A DNA stretch of 12,374 bases, from the UHGV virus genome UHGV-0140723; one strand, 5' to 3'. The notes below the pieces were generated by a model. The model saw nothing but the letters and a program-made list of their open reading frames with translations. It did no database searches and was not told where the DNA came from. Position numbers and translations under genes: made by a program. Source of the DNA: a virus. The stretch's first letter is position 1. Every line of letters begins with the position of its first letter. Positions 1,782 through 11,718 of this stretch are shown here, piece after piece.

Positions 1782-2345
1782 TTAACCTAAAAAGTCTTTT
1801 AAATTGCGCTCTGTGATGTTTGCCGTGATTTTATCCAGCAAGTCACAAAACACGGAACTATCACCGCTATTCTGTACAATTTTCGCCATACTTAACAAAT
1901 CATCGTCAACATAGCCTAAATTGCGGTTAGTTGCATCTGGTACAAAGAAAGGTGCATACATCGCACTAAATTTCGTCGAGTGAAGGCCAATAATCCAATT
2001 TTTATCAAAGTGTCCGGTAAAGCTGGCGATATCGCTCATGTTGTCACAAGAATAATCATCCTCTAGCTCTTCCTCTGGGATATCCATCTCAATGACAATT
2101 ACGTCCTGCGTTTCCATTTGGAAAGCTGCCGTAATAAGCCCAGATTCTAAAGCGTTTTGAATGCAGCGTTCACGAATGTAAGAATCTTCCTCATCTTCCA
2201 GACATTCCGTTTTGATAATCTTGTTCATTGGGTAAACGTAGAAACAATCATCCATGTATGAGCAGTTCCAGATTCCTTCCGGCTTGTCGCCACCATTCAG
2301 CAGGTTTACAAAGTTTTTGAGGGTAGTTCCGTGATAGCATTTCAT
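1782..2345 (-). CDS. hypothetical protein (187 aa); possible H-Y-E class ADP-ribosyltransferase-like fold (low-confidence functional call)
   Basis: ATG 2343-2345 behind a family-2 cassette. N-terminal MKCYHGTTLKNFVNLLNGG and downstream GIWNCSYMDDCFYVY resemble, from memory, the YHGT...GG and W-x-x-(F/S)-Y motifs of diphtheria toxin and exotoxin A and the DarT N-terminal motif. No search was run. Confidence 0.45.
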   Translation of the reverse strand: MKCYHGTTLKNFVNLLNGGDKPEGIWNCSYMDDCFYVYPMNKIIKTECLEDEEDSYIRERCIQNALESGLITAAFQMETQDVIVIEMDIPEEELEDDYSCDNMSDIASFTGHFDKNWIIGLHSTKFSAMYAPFFVPDATNRNLGYVDDDLLSMAKIVQNSGDSSVFCDLLDKITANITERNLKDFLG

Positions 2346-2427
2346 TTTTGAATCTCCTAGTTTAAGGATTGAGTGGTAAAGCTCTTTATCTGGGGCTTAA
2401 GTTATCAACTTTTAAGCCCCTTGTAAA
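2346..2427 (-). promoter_or_regulatory. PeSL-like cassette, family 2
   Basis: Sense strand: upstream stop TAA, then -35 CTTTACA (2422-2427), 17-bp spacer containing the 5' arm of hairpin GGGGCTTAA/TTAAGCCCC (2392-2420), -10 TAACTT (2399-2404) preceded by TG, then AGATAAAGAGCTTTACC...CTAAACTAGGAGATTCAAAAATG. Confidence 0.55.
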
Positions 2428-2432
2428 GTACT

Positions 2433-2636
2433 TTATTTGTTATTTTTGACAACTTTTAAAACTGCAAGGTAACCTAAGCAATAAGAATCACCGAAAAGAG
2501 TCCTACCCATGAAAGAATCCTCTTTGATATCCTTTGCAGTGACAGTTTTTTCTACGCCGTGGGAAAGGACTACATCACCAACTTTGATATCTTTGATGTG
2601 TGTTGTTTCAATGGTTAAGCCGTTAATAATAGCCAT
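2433..2636 (-). CDS. hypothetical protein (67 aa)
   Basis: ATG 2634-2636 behind a family-1 cassette; stop TAA at 2433-2435 is the first triplet of the next cassette. Confidence 0.6.
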   Translation of the reverse strand: MAIINGLTIETTHIKDIKVGDVVLSHGVEKTVTAKDIKEDSFMGRTLFGDSYCLGYLAVLKVVKNNK

Positions 2637-2729
2637 TTTAGAATCTCCTAGTTTAAGGACTTTATTTAGTAGGGAGGTTATTGCCTCCCCGTTGATGAGT
2701 AATTTAATCTATCTAAAAATCAGTGTCAA
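2637..2729 (-). promoter_or_regulatory. PeSL-like cassette, family 1
   Basis: Sense strand: -35 TTGACA (2724-2729), 17 bp, -10 TAAATT (2701-2706), hairpin GGGAGG/CCTCCC (2672-2689), RBS, ATG 2636. The -35 directly follows the stop of CDS 2737..3141. Confidence 0.6.
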
Positions 2730-2736
2730 CATCTTT

Positions 2737-3141
2737 TTAAAGTTCTGCGTAGATTGCATCACAGACATCACGGAAATCATGATTTGTTAAGTTACGTTGT
2801 AACCAAGTGGCAAAGAAATCAGCGATTGCAAAATTAGCGTCATACTCGACGGATAGCCACACTTTAACAGCAAATCGGAACATCTTTAAATCAAGCTCTT
2901 TATTCATTACCTTTGATTTGCCTAACATGTCGGCCATCTCATGTTGTGCACCGTCTAGCGTGATACCGGCTGCAACGTCAGCCAATGAGTTTTTTACGCT
3001 TTCAACGTCTAAGATAATACTTTGAATCTTCCCAATAATGTTTTGCAGTGTTTCATCTGGTGCTGATGATGTGATAACATTAATCCGGTTGACGGTCAAA
3101 CGTGCTTTTAAGATAGATAACTCACGATTATTAATAGCCAT
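2737..3141 (-). CDS. hypothetical protein (134 aa)
   Basis: ATG 3139-3141 behind a family-2 cassette (RBS TGGAGA); ORF from the track. Confidence 0.7.
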   Translation of the reverse strand: MAINNRELSILKARLTVNRINVITSSAPDETLQNIIGKIQSIILDVESVKNSLADVAAGITLDGAQHEMADMLGKSKVMNKELDLKMFRFAVKVWLSVEYDANFAIADFFATWLQRNLTNHDFRDVCDAIYAEL

Positions 3142-3221
3142 TTTTGAATCTCCAATTTAGGATTTAGTGGTAAAGCTCTTTATCTGGGGCTTACTTTATC
3201 GAACTATAAGCCCCTTGTAAA
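3142..3221 (-). promoter_or_regulatory. PeSL-like cassette, family 2
   Basis: -35 TTTACA (3216-3221), 17 bp, -10 TAAAGT (3193-3198), hairpin GGGGCTTA/TAAGCCCC (3186-3214) with a 13-nt loop. The central part is identical to the copy at 5239-5267. Confidence 0.55.
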
Positions 3222-3226
3222 GTACT

Positions 3227-3499
3227 TTATGCTAAATGCAGCTTTTTGCCTTTTACTATGATGTAACTTGATGCGCTATTGCCGCATACATCTTGATAAA
3301 TTCTACGCAAACGGCCTTCGTAGTATACTTTCCAGCTAGTTGGAATCTTTTTCCCGTATCCGGTAGCAGTTTTTTGGAATCCTGCAAGTTGCCAATCCAA
3401 AATGTGCTGTTCAGCTTGTAAATCCTCGAAGTGCATTACACCGTTCACATAGTGGCGTAGGGTTACGTTTAAGGTGCGACCGTTGTTAGTAGTGTACAT
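3227..3499 (-). CDS. hypothetical protein (90 aa)
   Basis: ATG 3497-3499 behind a family-1 cassette; stop TAA 3227-3229 abuts the -35 of the next cassette. Confidence 0.65.
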   Translation of the reverse strand: MYTTNNGRTLNVTLRHYVNGVMHFEDLQAEQHILDWQLAGFQKTATGYGKKIPTSWKVYYEGRLRRIYQDVCGNSASSYIIVKGKKLHLA

Positions 3500-3593
3500 T
3501 TTTGAATCTCCTAGTTTAAGGACTTTACTTAGTGGGGAAGGTCATTCCCTCCCCGTTGATTAGTAATTTACTTGTTTTTAAAACTAAAATCAA
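3500..3593 (-). promoter_or_regulatory. PeSL-like cassette, family 1
   Basis: -35 TTGATT (3588-3593, overlapping the TGA stop of CDS 3590..3922), 17 bp, -10 TAAATT (3565-3570), hairpin GGGGAGGG/CCTTCCCC (3534-3554), RBS, ATG 3499. Confidence 0.55.
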
Positions 3594-3922
3594 GAGAAAT
3601 TTTTTCGTTTGTTCAGTTCTTGGACAATTACAGTGTAATAGTCTTTTAAGTCACTGATATTTAAAGCATTTATCAGAGAGTTATAATCATCGACAAGCTG
3701 AAAATTATCTTTGAAAATGTCACTGATTTGATAAGTTTTTGATTGAAATCTGAAGCTCATTTCTAACCGTTTTATTTGTTCATCACTTAAACGCTCCAGA
3801 AAACTCATTACAAGGCTATTATTGACCTGTTGCGTGATTGCCTTACTTGCCAGATTGTAGGCGCTGTACGCCTTATATAGCGCCATAATAGCAATGATTG
3901 CAGTGATACCCATCATTAACAT
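3590..3922 (-). CDS. small membrane protein (110 aa, N-terminal transmembrane helix MLMMGITAIIAIMALY)
   Basis: ATG 3920-3922 overlaps the stop of the upstream gene (ATGTTAA, 7-nt overlap); RBS AGAGGAAG 8 nt upstream. Hydrophobic N-terminus seen directly. Confidence 0.6.
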   Translation of the reverse strand: MLMMGITAIIAIMALYKAYSAYNLASKAITQQVNNSLVMSFLERLSDEQIKRLEMSFRFQSKTYQISDIFKDNFQLVDDYNSLINALNISDLKDYYTVIVQELNKRKNFS

Positions 3923-4212
3923 AGTGCTTCCTCTTTACGTGACACTTTGCCATTTACAGTTATCTCATAAGAATCTAGTAAATCACTTTCAGACTTAACA
4001 GGACTTTTACAAGTATCATCATAAACATTAATTTGCAATACAGGCTTTTTATACTCCCTGCAACTATTCCATAAGCAAATCACTACACGACGGCCTTTTA
4101 TTTTGCCGTGTAACCATTCCATAACCTCATGAGTATTTCTTGAGGTCTCGATAAAATCAATTTTGTTGAGTAACTTGCTTAGATTTTCCCTAACTTTATT
4201 TGATAATTTCAT
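3916..4212 (-). CDS. hypothetical protein (98 aa)
   Basis: ATG 4210-4212 behind a family-2 variant cassette; translationally coupled to 3590..3922. Confidence 0.65.
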   Translation of the reverse strand: MKLSNKVRENLSKLLNKIDFIETSRNTHEVMEWLHGKIKGRRVVICLWNSCREYKKPVLQINVYDDTCKSPVKSESDLLDSYEITVNGKVSRKEEALC

Positions 4213-4292
4213 TTTTGAGTCTCCTAGTTTAAGGTTAGTTAATAAAGCTCTTTATCTGGGGCTATCTTATCAGCTTGATAACCCCGTGTAAA
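4213..4292 (-). promoter_or_regulatory. PeSL-like cassette, family 2 variant
   Basis: -35 CTTTACA (4287-4292), -10 TAAGAT (4264-4269), hairpin sense GGGGTTATC/GATAGCCCC (4258-4285). Inner stem base pairs differ from other family-2 copies by compensatory changes plus one G.U wobble. Confidence 0.55.
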
Positions 4293-4301
4293 GAGGTCTA
4301 T

Positions 4302-4814
4302 TTAGTTCTTAAAGATATTCATCACTGAATCTTTTAATGCTTCCAAGCGTTCTAATACTTCAGATTCTGCGTCTGCGTTGTTCACTTCCTCTTTTAGTCT
4401 GTTATCTAAATCATCGCCGTCACTGTAGCACCAATCGAAAGCATAACCAATATAAAAACTCTCTAAAACCGTGCTACCGTTTGCATCTACAACTTTCGCG
4501 GCGATGTTATATTCTGAAGCCTCTAAATCTCTTTCTAGTTCTTTCTGTAAGCTGATATAAGCCTCTTTTGATGGATTTTCCCGGCCTTGTTTTGCATAGT
4601 CACTCGAAAGCTGTTTCAGGCTGTAATGTAAAGGGATTGCATATTTAAATTCATTACGCTGATAAATAGGATTTTTAACAGTAACACCGCCTTGATGGTT
4701 GTCTGTAAATTCCCAATTATCAAGGTTATGGCTTGCTTCGTAGCAATTAACAGCTTCGTAAATGATGGAAAATTTTTCTTTTACAACTTCAAAGGTAGCG
4801 TCTACAGTTTTCAT
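4302..4814 (-). CDS. hypothetical protein (170 aa, acidic C-terminal half)
   Basis: ATG 4812-4814 behind a family-2 cassette; ORF from the track. Confidence 0.7.
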   Translation of the reverse strand: MKTVDATFEVVKEKFSIIYEAVNCYEASHNLDNWEFTDNHQGGVTVKNPIYQRNEFKYAIPLHYSLKQLSSDYAKQGRENPSKEAYISLQKELERDLEASEYNIAAKVVDANGSTVLESFYIGYAFDWCYSDGDDLDNRLKEEVNNADAESEVLERLEALKDSVMNIFKN

Positions 4815-4894
4815 TTTTGAATCTCCAGTTTAGGATTTAGTGGTAAAGCTCTTTATCTGGGGCTTAAGATATCAGCTTTTAAGCCCCTTGTAAA
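4815..4894 (-). promoter_or_regulatory. PeSL-like cassette, family 2
   Basis: -35 TTTACA (4889-4894), 17 bp, -10 TATCTT (4866-4871), hairpin GGGGCTTAA/TTAAGCCCC (4859-4887). Confidence 0.55.
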
Positions 4895-4902
4895 GTACTT
4901 TA

Positions 4903-5193
4903 TCAGTTAATTTTCAGCTTTGCATAACCTCTCATTGTACGAATGGGAGACGTTAAGGTTACGCGTCTGATATATGCCTTTTTAGTGTATACAGTTGTCT
5001 TCCCGATGGTGTTTACATGCGTGAAAAGGTTTATTGGTGAATTTTTTAAATTCATTTGTTTATCAGCCTTCACACCCCATCTTACAGCAGTTTGTTTTCC
5101 GTTGTCAACCACTTTTCCGCCTAACTTTTTCGCCATGATGCGAGCGTCATCACGAGTTTTTGCAGGAATTACAACGTTTTTGATAATAGCCAT
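4903..5193 (-). CDS. hypothetical basic protein (96 aa, MAIIKNVVIPAKTRDDARIMAKKLGG...)
   Basis: ATG 5191-5193 behind cassette RBS TGGAGAAC. The track ORF 4903..5208 starts at a TTG inside the RBS region and is an artefactual 5-codon extension. Confidence 0.65.
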   Translation of the reverse strand: MAIIKNVVIPAKTRDDARIMAKKLGGKVVDNGKQTAVRWGVKADKQMNLKNSPINLFTHVNTIGKTTVYTKKAYIRRVTLTSPIRTMRGYAKLKIN

Positions 5194-5274
5194 TTTTAAG
5201 TTCTCCAATTTAGGATTTAGTGGTAAAGCTCTTTATCTGGGGCTTACTTTATCGAACTATAAGCCCCTTGTAAA
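5194..5274 (-). promoter_or_regulatory. PeSL-like cassette, family 2
   Basis: -35 TTTACA (5269-5274), hairpin GGGGCTTA/TAAGCCCC (5239-5267), same loop as the 3142..3221 copy. Confidence 0.55.
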
Positions 5275-5282
5275 GTACTTTA

Positions 5283-5663
5283 TCAGTTAATTTTGAAAAT
5301 TGTCACATAGCCGTCACTGCCGATTATTTGAGACACTCCAGCTTTTTCCACTGAATAGCCCATATTTTCAAGATGATAAACAGCATCATCATAACCATAT
5401 GCGCCACCCTGATAACGTCTCTTATCGCATCTTATCAGGTTTTTACCACGTCCTGCAAGTGCATTCAGTACGGCTTTTTCACTTGATAGCGTACCATCTA
5501 ACATGGTTGCCGTGTAATGGTTGATTTTATTCCCGTTAATATCATACTTAAAATTGAATGCGTGAACAACAATCAATTTGCCGTTAAATTTTTCATCAAG
5601 TGACTTCTCCAGTGCGTTGCGGAAGTTGTCTTTGTTGATGAATTTCGGTGCACGATAAGCCAT
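5283..5663 (-). CDS. hypothetical protein (126 aa)
   Basis: ATG 5661-5663 behind a family-2 cassette. Last codons and stop (AAA ATT AAC TGA) are identical to those of CDS 4903..5193. Confidence 0.7.
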   Translation of the reverse strand: MAYRAPKFINKDNFRNALEKSLDEKFNGKLIVVHAFNFKYDINGNKINHYTATMLDGTLSSEKAVLNALAGRGKNLIRCDKRRYQGGAYGYDDAVYHLENMGYSVEKAGVSQIIGSDGYVTIFKIN

Positions 5664-5746
5664 TTTTGAATCTCCTAGTTTAAGGGTTAATTTAGTAAAG
5701 CTCTTTATCTGGGGCTTAAGATATCAGCTTTTAAGCCCCCTGTAAA
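5664..5746 (-). promoter_or_regulatory. PeSL-like cassette, family 2
   Basis: -35 TTTACA(G) (5741-5746), hairpin GGGGCTTAA/TTAAGCCCC (5711-5739), RBS AGGAGA, ATG 5663. Confidence 0.55.
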
Positions 5747-5751
5747 GTACT

Positions 5752-5958
5752 TTATTTGTCGTAGTAGTAAATCGCTGTCTGCCTTGTAAATTTCTTAGTG
5801 TTTCTTGTAAGGTAGCAATTAGAATTAATAGCCGTTTCTACATAGTTGCAATAGTCGGCTTCTGATATTCTGGACCATACGCCACAGATTTTCATGTAAA
5901 AACGTTTTACCTTTGTGTTAACGTTAGTTGTAACCATTAATTCACGATAGTAAGTCAT
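5752..5958 (-). CDS. hypothetical protein (68 aa)
   Basis: ATG 5956-5958 with RBS TGGAGAA; driven by the divergent cassette at 5959..6037. Confidence 0.6.
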   Translation of the reverse strand: MTYYRELMVTTNVNTKVKRFYMKICGVWSRISEADYCNYVETAINSNCYLTRNTKKFTRQTAIYYYDK

Positions 5959-6037
5959 TTTTGGATTCTCCAGTTTAGGAAGTGGGCTGGCTTGCCCGTC
6001 TGATGCAAATATTAAATAACCATAGTCAAAGAGTCAA
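5959..6037 (-). promoter_or_regulatory. divergent promoter + stem-loop + RBS cassette (first module of the array)
   Basis: Sense strand: -35 TTGACT (6032-6037), 17 bp, -10 TAATAT (6009-6014), short hairpin GGGC/GCCC (5984-5997), RBS TGGAGAA, ATG 5958. Same architecture as family 1, different sequence. Confidence 0.55.
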
Positions 6038-6203
6038 TAGGAATTTTAAAAATATTTTTGCAAAAAAAAAAAACTGTAATGAAACGGGTGCGCGCGATTA
6101 CCACAAAACAGAACTATAATCAAGAATTATTTTTCAATCCGCTACAAATTTTTCTGTTGACTTTTATTTTCAGATGTGGTAGCCTTGTGAGAAATGGCGA
6201 CAG

Positions 6204-6400
6204 CCCCACCTACCCCCACCTACCTGCACAATTCTAAAATGATTTTTCTTGCCCGACCTGAGCGGGGTCTGCACGTTTTGAAAATGAAAAAGCTCTTTGG
6301 AGATTACCTGCACAGTTTGAAAATGAATTTTCTCTTTGGAGTTCAAAATTTTCTCTACAGATTTCTCTACAGAACTCTACCTGCACAATTCTAAAATGAA
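6204..6400. repeat. cluster of short direct repeats in an ORF-free segment
   Basis: Four copies of CTGCAC(A/G)nTT(C/T)(T/G)AAAATGA starting at 6224, 6269, 6309 and 6382, two of them within a ~40-bp tandem unit (6268-6302 vs 6308-6342, 28/35 identical); tandem cccacctac x2 (6204-6222); tandem tttctctacag x2 (6351-6373). Confidence 0.6.
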
Positions 6401-6443
6401 AAAGCCCTCCTTACCTGAAAAATTTACCAGATAAGAAAGGCTT
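6391..6443 (-). terminator. intrinsic terminator-like long hairpin downstream of the macrodomain gene
   Basis: Sense RNA: AAGCCUUUCUUAUCUG / loop GUAAAUUUUU / CAGGUAAGGAGGGCUU gives a 16-bp stem with three G.U wobbles, followed by UUUCAUUUU. The wobbles would be C-A mismatches on the opposite strand. Confidence 0.5.
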
Positions 6444-6472
6444 AGGCTATTGTGAATATCCTACAGAGTTTC

Positions 6473-7258
6473 TTAGTTCTTTGCGTCTAAGAAGGTAACT
6501 TCTGGTGAAGAGAAGATTGCCTCGATATCCTCATCAGTTCTTGCATAGATATAAGCTTCTGCATCACTACCAAATGTTACAGCAATTCTGTGATTGCTCT
6601 TTGACAGGTGGGTAACTAGAGCGTTACTTAGAGACATCTTTTCAACCGGAGGGTTACTTTGATGTATCTTACCTTTTCTTCGTCTGAAGAGGGTAACTGC
6701 GTTATCTGTGAACACTGCTACACCTGCAAAGTATTCTGGTTCACAGTAGTTCTTCCAACCTGAGCGTAACTTGTGGTACATCTCGCCTTCATAGACATAC
6801 AGATAAACATCTACACTCTTCATCACCTGATTGATGATAACTGTGATGGCTTGAGGGTCAAGTCCACCGATACCTGCACCAATCATAGGTAAACCAACTT
6901 TCTTCAACTGATTAACTTCACAGTATCTGTTAAGCTGCTTCAAAGATGACTCTAAAGCACTGTATCGGGCATCTTTACCAGTCTTAAGCTGAGTGTAAAG
7001 GTTAGCTATACGGCCTTGTTCTAAACGTGCTACAGAGAAATTACCCAGTAAATTTTCACAGGGTTTGTGGCCTATACCACCTGCATATAGATAAACTTCT
7101 GTATCGGTCTCATATGCTTTTGGGTAAAGTTTAGAAATCTTGTCAGCGATACCTGCACCCATTAAATTCATACAGTTGCAACCGTGACCGATGATGTCAA
7201 ACTTACCTTTATCAAATGCGGCAAAGATATCACCATTGATTATTTTTACAATACCCAT
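6473..7258 (-). CDS. macrodomain protein, TARG1/OARD1/DarG-like N-terminal domain (~150 aa) plus unknown ~110-aa C-terminal domain
   Basis: 261-aa ORF; ATG 7256-7258 abuts the upstream stop (TAAATG) with RBS GGGAGAG. Motifs GDIF...GHGCNCMNLMGAGIA and LPMIGAGIGGLD match, from memory, the GDLF...HCISEDCRMGAGIA and MPRIGCGLD signature regions of human TARG1. Confidence 0.7.
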   Translation of the reverse strand: MGIVKIINGDIFAAFDKGKFDIIGHGCNCMNLMGAGIADKISKLYPKAYETDTEVYLYAGGIGHKPCENLLGNFSVARLEQGRIANLYTQLKTGKDARYSALESSLKQLNRYCEVNQLKKVGLPMIGAGIGGLDPQAITVIINQVMKSVDVYLYVYEGEMYHKLRSGWKNYCEPEYFAGVAVFTDNAVTLFRRRKGKIHQSNPPVEKMSLSNALVTHLSKSNHRIAVTFGSDAEAYIYARTDEDIEAIFSSPEVTFLDAKN

Positions 7259-7459
7259 TTAACATCTCTCCCAAGACTCTTTATCTTCTGAAGGTTTTAC
7301 ACGCTGTCCTTCGTGGTCTACCCAGATGCACCCACAACCTTCACAGATTACTGGCATTGCGTAGCCAGCTTTAAAGTCATCTTCAGTGATAAGACCTTTT
7401 AAGTCACCTGTATCACGTCCGAACATTTCGATAGAACAATCTTTACAGAAGTCAGCCAT
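7259..7459 (-). CDS. small Cys-rich protein (66 aa, CxxC...CEGCGC, zinc-ribbon-like)
   Basis: ATG 7457-7459 overlaps the TGA of the upstream gene (ATGGCTGA); RBS AAGAGG 9 nt upstream. The track ORF 7259..7537 begins at a GTG inside the upstream gene; I prefer the coupled ATG. Confidence 0.5.
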   Translation of the reverse strand: MADFCKDCSIEMFGRDTGDLKGLITEDDFKAGYAMPVICEGCGCIWVDHEGQRVKPSEDKESWERC

Positions 7460-7679
7460 GAATAATTGCCTCTTGAATGATGATACCTTTACCACAACGA
7501 CTTTTAAAGTCTTCCAATGGTTCAGAGATGAAGCCACGTAAGCAGTCAGTAAATACTAAGTTCTTCCTGTAAGCTATCACATCATTTGCTGTAAATGGGA
7601 TGACCTCATTTCGTCCAATGAACACTGCTGACCTGATAAGCTTTCGTGTCTTTTTATCTCTGGCTAGTATTACTTTCAT
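7452..7679 (-). CDS. hypothetical basic protein (75 aa)
   Basis: ATG 7677-7679 with RBS GAGAAGG 7 nt upstream; overlaps the end of the upstream gene by 26 nt in another frame. Confidence 0.55.
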   Translation of the reverse strand: MKVILARDKKTRKLIRSAVFIGRNEVIPFTANDVIAYRKNLVFTDCLRGFISEPLEDFKSRCGKGIIIQEAIIHG

Positions 7680-9286: not shown

Positions 9287-9982
9287 TCAATGTTTAACTA
9301 ACATGGTTTTGATGTGTGGAAGGATTCTGCTCACCTTCTGCACATTCTTCTCTGTGTCTTCTATAAAACATACTATATTAAAGTAAGGCAGAATGCAAGA
9401 CTGAATCATCCTCACTTTCAAACTTTCTGCACTTATAGAGTTAGTTCCAAAACCACGCATAAAAAGCATGTAATCATGCTCTATGTAATGCCTTAAAAAC
9501 ATCTCAGTAGGGATTCTCTGAGATTCACCTCTAGCTGTCAAGAGTCCAATGGCAGCATGATTAGCAATTGCATCAATGATATTGAAAACATACGTCGGCT
9601 TTGCACTTACAGAGTCAAGCAAATTAGTGTACTGTGAAAATGACCCATCAATCAATTCCGTTGAGTAATCTTCGTGATTAAAATTTGTAAGAACACCATC
9701 AATGTCTGCTAAGATAAGGTTACCTTTTTCTACAAGGTCTTTATTGGCTATGACTAAGCTGTCACGCCTTACACCTATAGTTTGTCCAGTCTCTTTATCT
9801 ACAACATTCACAATTGGCTCTGATGTGTGAAACTCTTCAAGTGAACATATAACTTCTCTTGCAGTGTCTTCAAAATCCCTACACTGTTCTGGAGTCCATA
9901 CACAGGAATTAAGACCTAACTCATGAGGATGTAAGTCATAAGCATGACACAGTACTTCATCAGACTTTCTTAATTTTTTCAT
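9287..9982 (-). CDS. HAD-superfamily phosphatase-like protein (231 aa); resembles the 3'-phosphatase domain of T4 polynucleotide kinase/phosphatase but has no P-loop kinase domain
   Basis: HAD motif I LILADIDGVLT, motif II GLLTARGES and a C-terminal acidic motif FIEDTEKNVQKV parallel, from memory, the FDVDGTL, VVSGRES and AIDDRTQVV motifs of T4 Pnk. No GxxxxGK(S/T) anywhere. ATG 9980-9982 overlaps the upstream gene by 23 nt. Confidence 0.65.
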   Translation of the reverse strand: MKKLRKSDEVLCHAYDLHPHELGLNSCVWTPEQCRDFEDTAREVICSLEEFHTSEPIVNVVDKETGQTIGVRRDSLVIANKDLVEKGNLILADIDGVLTNFNHEDYSTELIDGSFSQYTNLLDSVSAKPTYVFNIIDAIANHAAIGLLTARGESQRIPTEMFLRHYIEHDYMLFMRGFGTNSISAESLKVRMIQSCILPYFNIVCFIEDTEKNVQKVSRILPHIKTMLVKH

Positions 9983-10508
9983 GATTTACCTTAGAAATGT
10001 TTGTTGCAAATTCACATTGAGCGATAACTTTCATGTTGTTATAGACATCTTGAGAATACTTCTTAGCTTTAGGGATTCTGTACGAATACCCAGCATTATA
10101 TGATGCTAAAACTTTTTGTAAAGTCTTCTTTGACTTTGGCTGACCATGTACCTTTGTCCAAAACTCAAGCTCTTTGTGCGTTTCCTTTGCAGCATAGTCA
10201 AAGTCTTTTAAGAGTTTCTTTTTAGCCACATTAGGACTAATTTTGTTACGCTTTACAACAGTCTTCAAGTGATTCTGGAAAATACCATAATCATGTGTCT
10301 TTTTATTCTCTACCTTCAGACCTAACTCTGACTCTTGTAAGGCTATAGCAGCTAGAGTGATACCCCAACCTTTGCCCATGTTATTCTCACCATACTGGTA
10401 AGCTTTTAACATGTTTACTTTTTGGCTAATTGATAGCTCTGGGCAGTCAACTGCATAAGATAAGTGTGCTGTAAACATTAAGCACAAACCTAGAATCAAT
10501 TTCTTCAT
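9960..10508 (-). CDS. exported lytic transglycosylase-like protein (SLT domain, 182 aa) with cleavable signal peptide
   Basis: N-terminus MKKLILGLCLMFTAHLSYA is a signal peptide. Family-1 lytic transglycosylase motifs ALQESELG (catalytic E-S), DYGIFQN and LASYNAGYSY. ATG 10506-10508 with RBS AGGAGAA. Confidence 0.8.
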   Translation of the reverse strand: MKKLILGLCLMFTAHLSYAVDCPELSISQKVNMLKAYQYGENNMGKGWGITLAAIALQESELGLKVENKKTHDYGIFQNHLKTVVKRNKISPNVAKKKLLKDFDYAAKETHKELEFWTKVHGQPKSKKTLQKVLASYNAGYSYRIPKAKKYSQDVYNNMKVIAQCEFATNISKVNHEKIKKV

Positions 10509-10608: not shown

Positions 10609-11718
10609 TTAGATTTCACGTTTACGTTGGGAGATAAGTTCTCCAGCAGTACCAACGATGACATGTAAAGCTTCAGTCTTGCCATCCCATGCTTTCAGCA
10701 CTTTACGTTGATTATCAACGATTGCTGCAACTTCATAACGAGACGAGCGCATCTTCATATCGTTGTAATCAGTTGGTACGGATACAACGTCTCGTGGATG
10801 GACACGAACCTTCAGAATTGTATCACCTGAGAAACAACGAACATAATCCCAAGCACCAACATGAAGACCTTGAGAGCAAGTCACGTTACGGTTATTATCA
10901 ACCATCCAACGTGGCATTTCTACAATGTTACCCAAATCATTAGGTACTCTGTAGGTGTGGGAGTCAACCAGCTTGCCTTCACGAGTAGATACTTTCTTCC
11001 AACCAATGATGTAGCCTTCTTCATCAATTTCAACATCAAGGTGAGATACGAAGCCCCAAAGTTGTTCTACGGAATCTTTAGATGGGTTTTCCATCAGTTT
11101 TTCGAAGAACATCACAAGGCGTTCGAAACCTTTATCTCCAGTCTTCATCATGTGAAGAATACGGTCAACCAGAGTAGAACGCATCTCAACAGCACCGTAG
11201 AATAGTTTGTCGCCTTTGATTGTGATAGCACCCTGAGTGAAGTTTTCGATAGACTTACGAATGTTCATCAGTTCAAAGGCTTTCTTAAACTCACCTTTCA
11301 CAACATGAACTACAATCTCTTGATAGTTCGGATGAGTAGATTCAACAATTTCAGACTCTGAACCATAAGTCATAATTACAGAGTCACCAGTAATCATGTA
11401 CTCAATCTTGTCATCTTTCTGCATAGCTTCATGCAGTTTATTTACTGGAGCTTTCTGTACAGCATCTTTAACAACCTTTTCAACTGGTTTGCCAGCTTTC
11501 TTTTTAAAAGTCTTAGCAACTTGTTTCAAAGTCTTCGTAGCTGGTGTAGAAGTTGCCTTCTTATTCCCTTTTAAGGTTGCTTCATGACGCTCTACAGCAC
11601 GACCGACTGAACGGGTTGAAGTATTAAATTTCTGTGCAATAGCTGTTTTAGTCAACTTACCTTCTTTAACCAGTTTGTAAATTTCTGCGTCAATCTGTGC
11701 TTTAGTTTTAGTAGTCAT
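10609..11718 (-). CDS. rIIB: rIIB protein (369 aa)
   Basis: Strong similarity by recollection to T4 rIIB across the C-terminal two thirds (LVDRIL, ENPS, EMPRWMVDNNRNVTCSQGLHV vs T4 KMPRTRVNDDDTQTCSRGLHV, VRVHPRDVVSVPTDYNDMKMR vs T4 VKVHPRDVVSIPIDYNDAKMR). N-terminal helix-turn-helix-like segment. ATG 11716-11718 with RBS GAGAGAG. Confidence 0.9.
   Translation of the reverse strand: MTTKTKAQIDAEIYKLVKEGKLTKTAIAQKFNTSTRSVGRAVERHEATLKGNKKATSTPATKTLKQVAKTFKKKAGKPVEKVVKDAVQKAPVNKLHEAMQKDDKIEYMITGDSVIMTYGSESEIVESTHPNYQEIVVHVVKGEFKKAFELMNIRKSIENFTQGAITIKGDKLFYGAVEMRSTLVDRILHMMKTGDKGFERLVMFFEKLMENPSKDSVEQLWGFVSHLDVEIDEEGYIIGWKKVSTREGKLVDSHTYRVPNDLGNIVEMPRWMVDNNRNVTCSQGLHVGAWDYVRCFSGDTILKVRVHPRDVVSVPTDYNDMKMRSSRYEVAAIVDNQRKVLKAWDGKTEALHVIVGTAGELISQRKREI

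Follow-up and report, generated by a model that had tools for sequence, protein, structure and literature searches.

An orphan macrodomain protein and a divergent ADP-ribosyltransferase-fold protein: two early-region gene products probably tied to NAD+ and ADP-ribose chemistry in a Felixounavirus

A macrodomain protein of the AdfM/Adpp family

In phage T4 the macrodomain protein Tk.4 is AdfM, which according to genetic evidence is needed by the phage to resist DarTG2 (bioRxiv 10.1101/2025.11.20.689424). A macrodomain protein from Vibrio phage Gary's NARP1 operon, Adpp, converts ADP-ribose-1''-phosphate (ADPR-1''-phosphate) to ADP-ribose (ADPR) and so overcomes the RES-domain defence aRES (bioRxiv 10.64898/2026.01.28.702374); in the same preprint (Osterman et al. 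2026) NARP1-AP is defined operationally by a macrodomain gene within two genes of Adps/Namat, and the arrangement Adps-x-Namat-x-macro has been noted in phage Adele too (PMC12846349). SCO6735, in which Gln85 is essential, takes ADP-ribose off thymidine in DNA and gives protection from DarT (PMC9411070). Here we compare these systems with two genes in a stretch of 12,374 nucleotides from the virus genome UHGV-0140723 (the window, by which the whole stretch analysed is meant): a macrodomain gene, hereafter the macro gene (6473..7258, minus strand, ATG start, 261 aa), and ORF187 (1782..2345, minus strand, ATG start, 187 aa). An earlier sequence-only reading had called their products a TARG1/DarG-like macrodomain hydrolase and an H-Y-E-type ADP-ribosyltransferase (ART), and had proposed that they form a writer/eraser pair for ADP-ribosylation. 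Both open reading frames (ORFs), their coordinates, their shared strand and the gap of about 4 kb between them (4,127 nt) are as it gave them.

With moderate confidence we read the two as independent early-region accessory genes, each tied to the chemistry of nicotinamide adenine dinucleotide (NAD+) and ADP-ribose, and not as a dedicated writer/eraser pair; most likely both are independent counter-defence or host-takeover genes. The window belongs to a Felixounavirus, a FelixO1-like myovirus, with megablast identities of 90-95% to many E. coli and Salmonella phages. All of its substantial ORFs lie on the minus strand, and its content (rIIB, an SLT-like gene, a polynucleotide kinase (PNK)-like gene and many small genes) bears out the claim that this is an early region.

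The macrodomain occupies residues 1 to about 160 of the 261 (6779..7258, minus strand). Pfam Macro matched residues 25-138 with an E value of 4.5e-7, above the gathering score, the DarG models of NCBIfam (residues 7-165) and PADLOC gave 2.6e-12 and 1.1e-12, and the best solved relative in a single-sequence search was TARG1 (1.6e-5), so that at sequence level the TARG1/DarG-like call holds. A profile of five phage macrodomain proteins, made of the window protein and its orthologues from a T4-like phage, Erwinia phage phiEa21-4, Pakpunavirus Moonstruck and Vibrio phage 184E37.1, was compared with the PDB and matched BT1257 (3e-19), TARG1 (1e-16), SCO6735 (8e-16), DarG of Mtb (1e-14) and yeast Poa1p (5.5e-12). 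By these matches the domain is assigned to the ALC1-like class that holds TARG1, DarG, SCO6735 and Poa1p.

The five phage proteins form one family, with 26-44% identity and 20 invariant columns. The window protein is 34% identical to T4-type Tk.4 over about 160 residues (E 3e-24), 30% to the NARP1-adjacent Pakpunavirus protein (3e-21) and 26% to the protein of the Vibrio Adps-macro-Namat operon (4e-10), these three being mutually 27-38% identical; it also matches PHROG 335 with an E value of 6e-113. Judged by sequence, then, it belongs to the phage Tk.4/AdfM-Adpp family. The gene adds a new member to this family, whose description dates from 2025-2026, and it extends AdfM/Adpp to the Felixounaviruses. 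The likeness to Tk.4 includes the shared motifs H-x-x-NC, MG[AS]GIA, NLYTQ and LP-x-IG-x-G, the orphan state, with no adjoining DarT gene, and an early region with an SLT/Vs.1-like gene. However, only the Felix protein carries a C-terminal domain of about 100 aa, and anti-DarTG2 activity has been shown for the T4 protein alone.

The family motifs appear in the window protein as H25-x-x-N28-C, M33-G-A-G-I-A, N86-L-Y-T-Q90 and P124-x-I-G-A-G. Gln90, invariant in the five phage proteins compared, aligns with Lys84 of TARG1 (Lys80 of DarG), and Gly131 aligns with Asp125 of TARG1. The catalytic lysine of DarG and TARG1 is therefore not present; the window protein has instead a Gln at this position, exactly like Gln85 of SCO6735. 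A second difference from DarG concerns the C-terminus. The NCBIfam DarG match is limited to model positions 4-155 of 338 and scores 46.7 bits against a cut-off of 250, and the last ~100 residues (6473..6778, minus strand) have no Pfam match. By tblastn this extension was found only in 247 Felix-like records, always within a gene annotated as 'phosphatase', and is thus specific to that lineage. It has no relation to the equally long extension in gp14 of Erwinia phage phiEa21-4, and neither of the two resembles the DarG C-terminal domain by sequence. That the macro protein lacks an obvious domain for binding DarT, as had been noticed from the sequence, is confirmed.

In Vibrio and Pakpunavirus phages the macro gene lies inside or adjoining the NARP1 NAD+-reconstitution genes, matching the NARP1-AP pathway, as Adps-macro-Namat in Vibrio phage 184E37.1 (locus L007, 2028-4969) and as Adps-x-Namat-x-macro in Moonstruck (L014, 1-3480). 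In the Felixounavirus AYO145A, Adps and Namat, annotated there as ribose-phosphate pyrophosphokinase and nicotinamide phosphoribosyl transferase, lie at 84.0-86.7 kb, just before rIIA (L016, 20013-22723). Namat runs up to 86722 in a record that ends at 87372, and the macro gene begins at 7537; they are thus about 8 kb apart across the record ends, with rIIA/rIIB and other genes between. By the operational definition, which asks for a distance of at most two genes, the Felixounavirus arrangement falls outside NARP1-AP. The window protein thus resembles Adpp in family, since it is 26-30% identical to the NARP1-embedded proteins of 184E37.1 and Moonstruck, in its relation to Poa1p and in being encoded by phages that carry NARP1, but it differs in the distance of its gene from Adps/Namat and in being less identical to the operon-embedded forms than to Tk.4.

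Most likely, the macro protein acts as an orphan, antitoxin-like hydrolase, which would strip from the 1'' position of ADP-ribose a substituent placed there by a host defence. Catalysis may follow SCO6735, by analogy with which an essential Gln would replace the Lys of TARG1 and DarG. One candidate substrate, suggested by the genetics of T4 AdfM, is ADP-ribose on thymidine of phage single-stranded DNA after a DarT2-type attack. The other would be the phosphate of ADPR-1''-phosphate made by RES-type NADases, and the ADPR so released could enter the phage NARP1 genes for NAD+ reconstitution, which in Felixounavirus genomes lie about 8 kb upstream.

ORF187, a divergent protein of predicted ART fold

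ORF187 matched no model in Pfam, NCBIfam or PADLOC and, with phmmer, no PDB entry; its only match in the sequence libraries was PHROG 3303, of unknown function. A profile of its family compared with the PDB gave only a non-significant match to the 'HGT' motif of Tpt1, and 61 family members compared with Pfam gave sub-threshold matches to PARP in six cases and to Tpt1 in one. Structure prediction pointed to the ART superfamily. A first AlphaFold model, made from Felix-only sequences, was mediocre, with a predicted local distance difference test (pLDDT) of 70, and a second, made from 61 diverse sequences, was confident, with a pLDDT of 94.3 and a predicted template modelling score of 0.89. In two independent models the fold matched ART-superfamily proteins almost exclusively; the BFVD viral fold library returned one uncharacterised relative and a DarT fragment. 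The predicted structure shows the split β-sheet NAD+-binding core of the ART fold, followed by a helical C-terminal region (residues ~128-187).

An exhaustive profile search collected 313 clusters of ORF187-family proteins at 50% identity, nearly all of them stand-alone proteins of 160-240 aa, and a word-indexed search with ORF187 found Felix-like relatives only. Conservation was counted over 149 aligned sequences, namely the window ORF and 148 of the 313 cluster representatives. All of them have Trp26, Asp97 and Ser99, 144 (97%) have His5 and 147 (99%) have Tyr36, and Gly6, Thr7, Ser29, Cys100, Asn102 and Met103 are nearly invariant. His5 and Tyr36 fall within predicted strands (residues 2-8 and 35-39), the β1 and β2 positions of the NAD+-binding residues in H-Y-E transferases. 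The motifs are His5-Gly-Thr in β1, Tyr36 within 'FYVY' in β2, Glu86/Asp88 in β3 and Asp97-x-Ser99-Cys-x-Asn-Met. Glu86 is present in the window protein but in only 91 of the 149 sequences (61%), with V, C, K or another residue in its place in the remaining 39%; an acid at 86 or 88, on the same face of β3, is found in 143 (96%). Hence the H-Y-E call stands for the fold and for His5 and Tyr36, while Glu86 of the window protein is a candidate for the catalytic glutamate that the family as a whole does not keep; the ART assignment survives because of the predicted fold and the conserved His and Tyr.

ORF187 probably uses His5 and Tyr36 to bind NAD+ and, early in infection, attaches ADP-ribose to a protein or nucleic acid of the host. 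Since the catalytic Glu of the triad is not strictly kept, however, ORF187 may not be a transferase, which would count against this part of our reading. It would then be an inactive binder of ART fold, either a sponge for immune signals made from NAD+ (ADPR or cyclic ADPR isomers) or a stoichiometric inhibitor or decoy for a defence protein of the host that uses NAD+. The loss of Glu86 in so many members speaks for such a role, as does the fact that the strictest conservation (W26, D97, S99, C100, N102, M103) is specific to the family and not that of the classical triad; the protein is also small, stand-alone, fast-evolving and partnerless, like many phage sponge and inhibitor proteins. Yet His5, Tyr36 and an acid at 86 or 88 are almost always retained, the invariant Asp97 could, from its conservation, serve as an alternative catalytic acid, and polar residues kept so strictly over 313 clusters are more typical of an active site. 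On balance we regard an inactive binder as unlikely.

At sequence level, the likeness to Tpt1 was limited to the 'YHGT' of ORF187, which aligns with the 'FHGT'/'YHGT' motif of the Tpt1 NAD lobe. The N-terminal RNA-binding lobe of Tpt1 carries most of the catalytic Arg-His-Arg-Arg tetrad. ORF187 has no such lobe, its HGT motif lying at residue 5 as against about residue 105 in KptA, and comparison by hhalign with E. coli KptA and with the KptA-family profile aligned only 17 columns at a probability of 2-4% (3.9% for the family profile). A two-lobe Tpt1/KptA identity was rejected on these grounds. Membership of the DarT/DUF4433 family was rejected too, as no DarT model of PADLOC, Pfam or NCBIfam matched the sequence. 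ORF187 belongs to the ART superfamily as a divergent member, carries motifs of the H-Y-[E/D] type, and is neither DarT nor Tpt1 nor a member of another described family.

The same results bear on a pathway like that of Tpt1 and Poa1p, in which ORF187 would move an RNA 2'-phosphate to NAD+, the macro protein would dephosphorylate the resulting ADPR-1''-phosphate and NARP1 would recycle ADPR to NAD+. The YHGT alignment fits this scheme, the macro family counts Poa1p among its significant relatives, Adpp has Poa1p-like activity, and the early region also holds a PNK-like gene. But a protein that begins at the HGT motif misses the whole RNA-binding lobe, the KptA profile comparison is as short and improbable as given above, Tpt1 has His at the position of Tyr36, and outside the Ounavirinae there is no conserved linkage of ORF187 to macro or PNK genes. 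We consider such a pathway very improbable.

Among isolate phages the ORF187 family was found in 372-373 records, belonging to the Ounavirinae (including FelixO1 and Bas63/JohannRWettstein), to Pakpunavirus and to one group of Vibrio myoviruses; the model phage PaoP5 carries a member as well. By tblastn the member P0043 returned the same 372 records as the ORF187 query, and the divergent member P0192 nothing in isolate phages. Locus searches with single divergent members gave nothing or Pakpunavirus alone, and a search with the 'DDYSCxNM' sub-alignment gave mostly Felixounaviruses and five divergent loci. In the searchable literature we found nothing that links Felixounavirus or Pakpunavirus to an ORF187-like protein, and as far as that literature shows the family is an undescribed clade of a known superfamily.

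Between Felixounaviruses no gene of the region diverges more than ORF187, at 55-56% identity, whereas its neighbours are 83-100% identical, with two exceptions in one genome each (ORF 4903-5208 at 66% and ORF 7452-7679 at 73%). Two deeply diverged alleles are found within the Felixounaviruses, about 40 records having at least 90% identity and about 200 having about 55% (compared with loci L024, L026 and L039). The site is thus a local hypervariable hotspot, a pattern suggestive of an arms-race gene.

Two observations concern the neighbourhoods of divergent homologues. In a metagenomic phage-like contig (GCA_024712465.1; locus L008, 4702-10597), a homologue with 24% identity lies 1.4 kb downstream of a complete NAD+ salvage cluster comprising NUDIX, isochorismatase/nicotinamidase, nicotinamide mononucleotide adenylyltransferase-like (NMNAT), NAPRTase and NAD synthase genes, possibly a NARP-like module beside an ART-fold gene that uses NAD+; this single case hints at a NAD+ theme for the family. 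SprT-like protease genes stand directly upstream of one divergent homologue (L009, 2772-4046) and about 6 kb upstream of the Pakpunavirus one (L004, 13891-14367), a proximity that may be coincidental.

Linkage between the two genes

Whether the two genes form a pair was judged from transcription units, co-occurrence, neighbourhoods and divergence. The start codon of the macro gene abuts the stop codon of the upstream ORF (at 7259), so that the gene has no promoter of its own and is the last of its operon. An intrinsic terminator with a 17-bp stem and a T-run follows directly (6402..6443, minus strand); it was found by terminator scan and is annotated at the equivalent place in AYO145A. Given this terminator and the position of the macro gene at the end of its operon, the two genes belong to different transcription units. 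Upstream of ORF187, a consensus scan found a sigma-70-like promoter, TTGACA-17-TAAATT (2701..2729, minus strand; 10/12 matches), with an annotated promoter at the equivalent position in AYO145A. It precedes a 67-aa ORF (2433-2636), one small gene beyond ORF187, and is the probable start, on sequence grounds, of the transcript that includes ORF187. Directly upstream of ORF187 stands a repeated early intergenic element (2355..2447, minus strand), one of five copies in the window of the repeat family D1; an extended hairpin (GGGGCTTAA...TTAAGCCCC) is followed by a conserved ribosome-binding site, and the predicted RNA fold has a free energy of -25.4 kcal/mol (z -4.8). Of the early-type promoters proposed for both genes, then, that of ORF187 agrees with this element and the TTGACA-17-TAAATT site, but that of the macro gene does not agree with a start codon abutting the stop at 7259. 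The two genes are not adjacent, as had been recognised, since about ten genes and a strong terminator lie between them, and the operonic adjacency typical of DarT/DarG is absent.

Non-adjacency was part of the proposal under discussion, namely that ORF187, as a DarT-like or other H-Y-E ART acting on DNA or protein, and the macro protein, as its cognate eraser, form a differently organised phage modification/demodification system. In its favour, both folds are encoded on one strand 4.1 kb apart, and the macrodomain falls in the class of DarG/TARG1/SCO6735, by which DarT products are reversed. The co-occurrence of the genes in relatives, put forward as a check, was also borne out: both are near-core in Felixounaviruses and both are found in all isolate lineages that carry ORF187 (Ounavirinae, Pakpunavirus and the Vibrio myoviruses). 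This counts for little, because there are few such lineages and some of them are related.

The macro family is 7.6 times more widespread, with tblastn homologues in 2,852 phage records, T4-type tk.4 among them, against 373 for ORF187, and at least 87% of the macro-bearing records, T4 included, have no ORF187. About 12.5 kb separate the macro gene from the ORF187 homologue in Pakpunavirus and the Vibrio phage, where the macro gene belongs to the NARP1 module; the two Pakpunavirus records common to both searches have the genes on opposite strands. Flanks of the ORF187 loci, up to 10 kb on each side, were searched for macro genes with a hidden Markov model and for Adps and Namat with query sequences; only Ounavirinae loci had a macro gene, and none had Adps or Namat. 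The eight divergent loci from metagenomes and IMG/VR (L008, L009, L012, L044 and L055-L058) had no macro gene in the flanks fetched. When same-strand neighbours within 5 kb were compared all against all, over 12 lineage representatives, no gene but the ART-fold gene itself proved to be shared across lineages.

The rates of divergence are discordant as well. The macro protein is 95-98% identical between Felixounaviruses and ORF187 55-56%, which implies very different selection on the two genes; a co-adapted pair would not be expected to diverge in this way. Moreover, DarT, to whose models ORF187 has no sequence match, ranks structurally below Tpt1 and toxin ARTs among its fold matches. The writer/eraser inference is unsupported. 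The macro family already serves, on experimental evidence, in roles that call for no ART from the phage (AdfM against DarTG2, Adpp against aRES). With separate transcription units, unequal distribution, macro-free divergent loci and no conserved partner, positive evidence for a pair does not go beyond the presence of both folds, and we think it improbable.

Several points weigh against full independence of the two functions. Every isolate lineage with ORF187 also carries the macro gene and NARP1 somewhere in its genome, one metagenomic homologue stands next to the NAD+ salvage cluster described above, and a looser functional tie of both genes through NAD+/ADPR metabolism is possible. With about three isolate lineages, some of them related, linkage and independence are alike beyond statistical proof. 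Against the role proposed for the macro protein, the Felix gene lies outside the NARP1 operon and its product has the extra C-terminal domain.

In a further reading, ORF187 would found an undescribed clade of phage ARTs, with the signature H-Y-[E/D] plus invariant Trp26 plus Asp97-x-Ser99-Cys-x-Asn-Met and at least 313 clusters at 50% identity. ORF187 would then be an enzymatic anti-defence or takeover effector with a new target, its use of NAD+ buffered by the macro protein and NARP1 in a loose, genome-level NAD+/ADP-ribose economy and not in a DarTG-like pair. We hold this version only tentatively, and keep to two independent accessory genes as our preferred reading.

Surrounding features and significance

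Along the minus strand the gene order is rIIB (10609-11718), the SLT/Vs.1-like gene (9960-10508), the PNK-like gene (9287-9982), a block of small genes that ends in the macro gene, the terminator, and about ten small early genes including ORF187. The PNK-like gene overlaps the SLT/Vs.1-like gene; its product matches PHROG PNK families only, over residues ~84-217, and has no sequence match in Pfam or the PDB. The layout from the SLT-like gene to the macro gene recalls the vs.1-vs-tk.4 cluster of T4 (L013). The ORF directly upstream of the macro gene (7259-7537) probably starts at Met27, since PHROG 2210 covers residues 27-92, and would encode a 66-aa Cys-rich, zinc-ribbon-like protein (CxxC...CxxC); the abutting stop and start codons suggest translational coupling with the macro gene.

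Two repeat families lie on the minus strand of the early region. D1, of 93 nt, has five copies (2355-2447, 3149-3241, 4822-4914, 5202-5294 and 5674-5766), and D3, of 84 nt, has four (827-910, 1391-1474, 2634-2717 and 3497-3580). Each comprises a strong hairpin rich in GC (GGGGCTTAA..TTAAGCCCC or GGGGAGG..CCTCCC) and, after it, a conserved ribosome-binding region, CTAGGAGATTC-N4-ATG. Possible roles are those of a processing site, a transcript stabiliser or an attenuator.

Between the macro gene and the next gene, a stretch of about 510 nt that includes the terminator (5959-6472) is non-coding. The 22-nt motif TCATTTTAGAATTGTGCAGGTA occurs in it three times (6221-6242, 6305-6326 and 6378-6399; at most 3 mismatches, 0 expected by chance), with a weaker fourth copy near 6269-6302, and is followed by short CTGTAGAGAAA and GGTGGGG repeats and a promoter-like TTGACT-17-TAATAT site (6037-6009). 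Rfam and tRNA scans gave no match, either in this stretch or elsewhere in the window. The array could be an operator or other regulatory array.

For the phages concerned, setting aside the writer/eraser reading avoids their misleading annotation as carriers of a DarTG-like system. The macro gene is the less novel of the two, and raises the question whether one macro family acts against DarT2, against aRES or against both, and what the Felix-specific C-terminal domain contributes. The short list of phage ADP-ribosyltransferases comprises Alt/ModA/ModB and AcrIF11; if ORF187 is an active transferase, a widespread, unannotated family would join it. Phage ARTs and orphan macrodomains are already known themes, but the ART-fold family described here is both widespread and hypervariable, and members of it occur in model phages open to genetic work, such as FelixO1, Bas63/JohannRWettstein and PaoP5. 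As the hypervariability of ORF187 at the level of alleles suggests an arms-race role, its target could reveal a mechanism of host defence or of host takeover.

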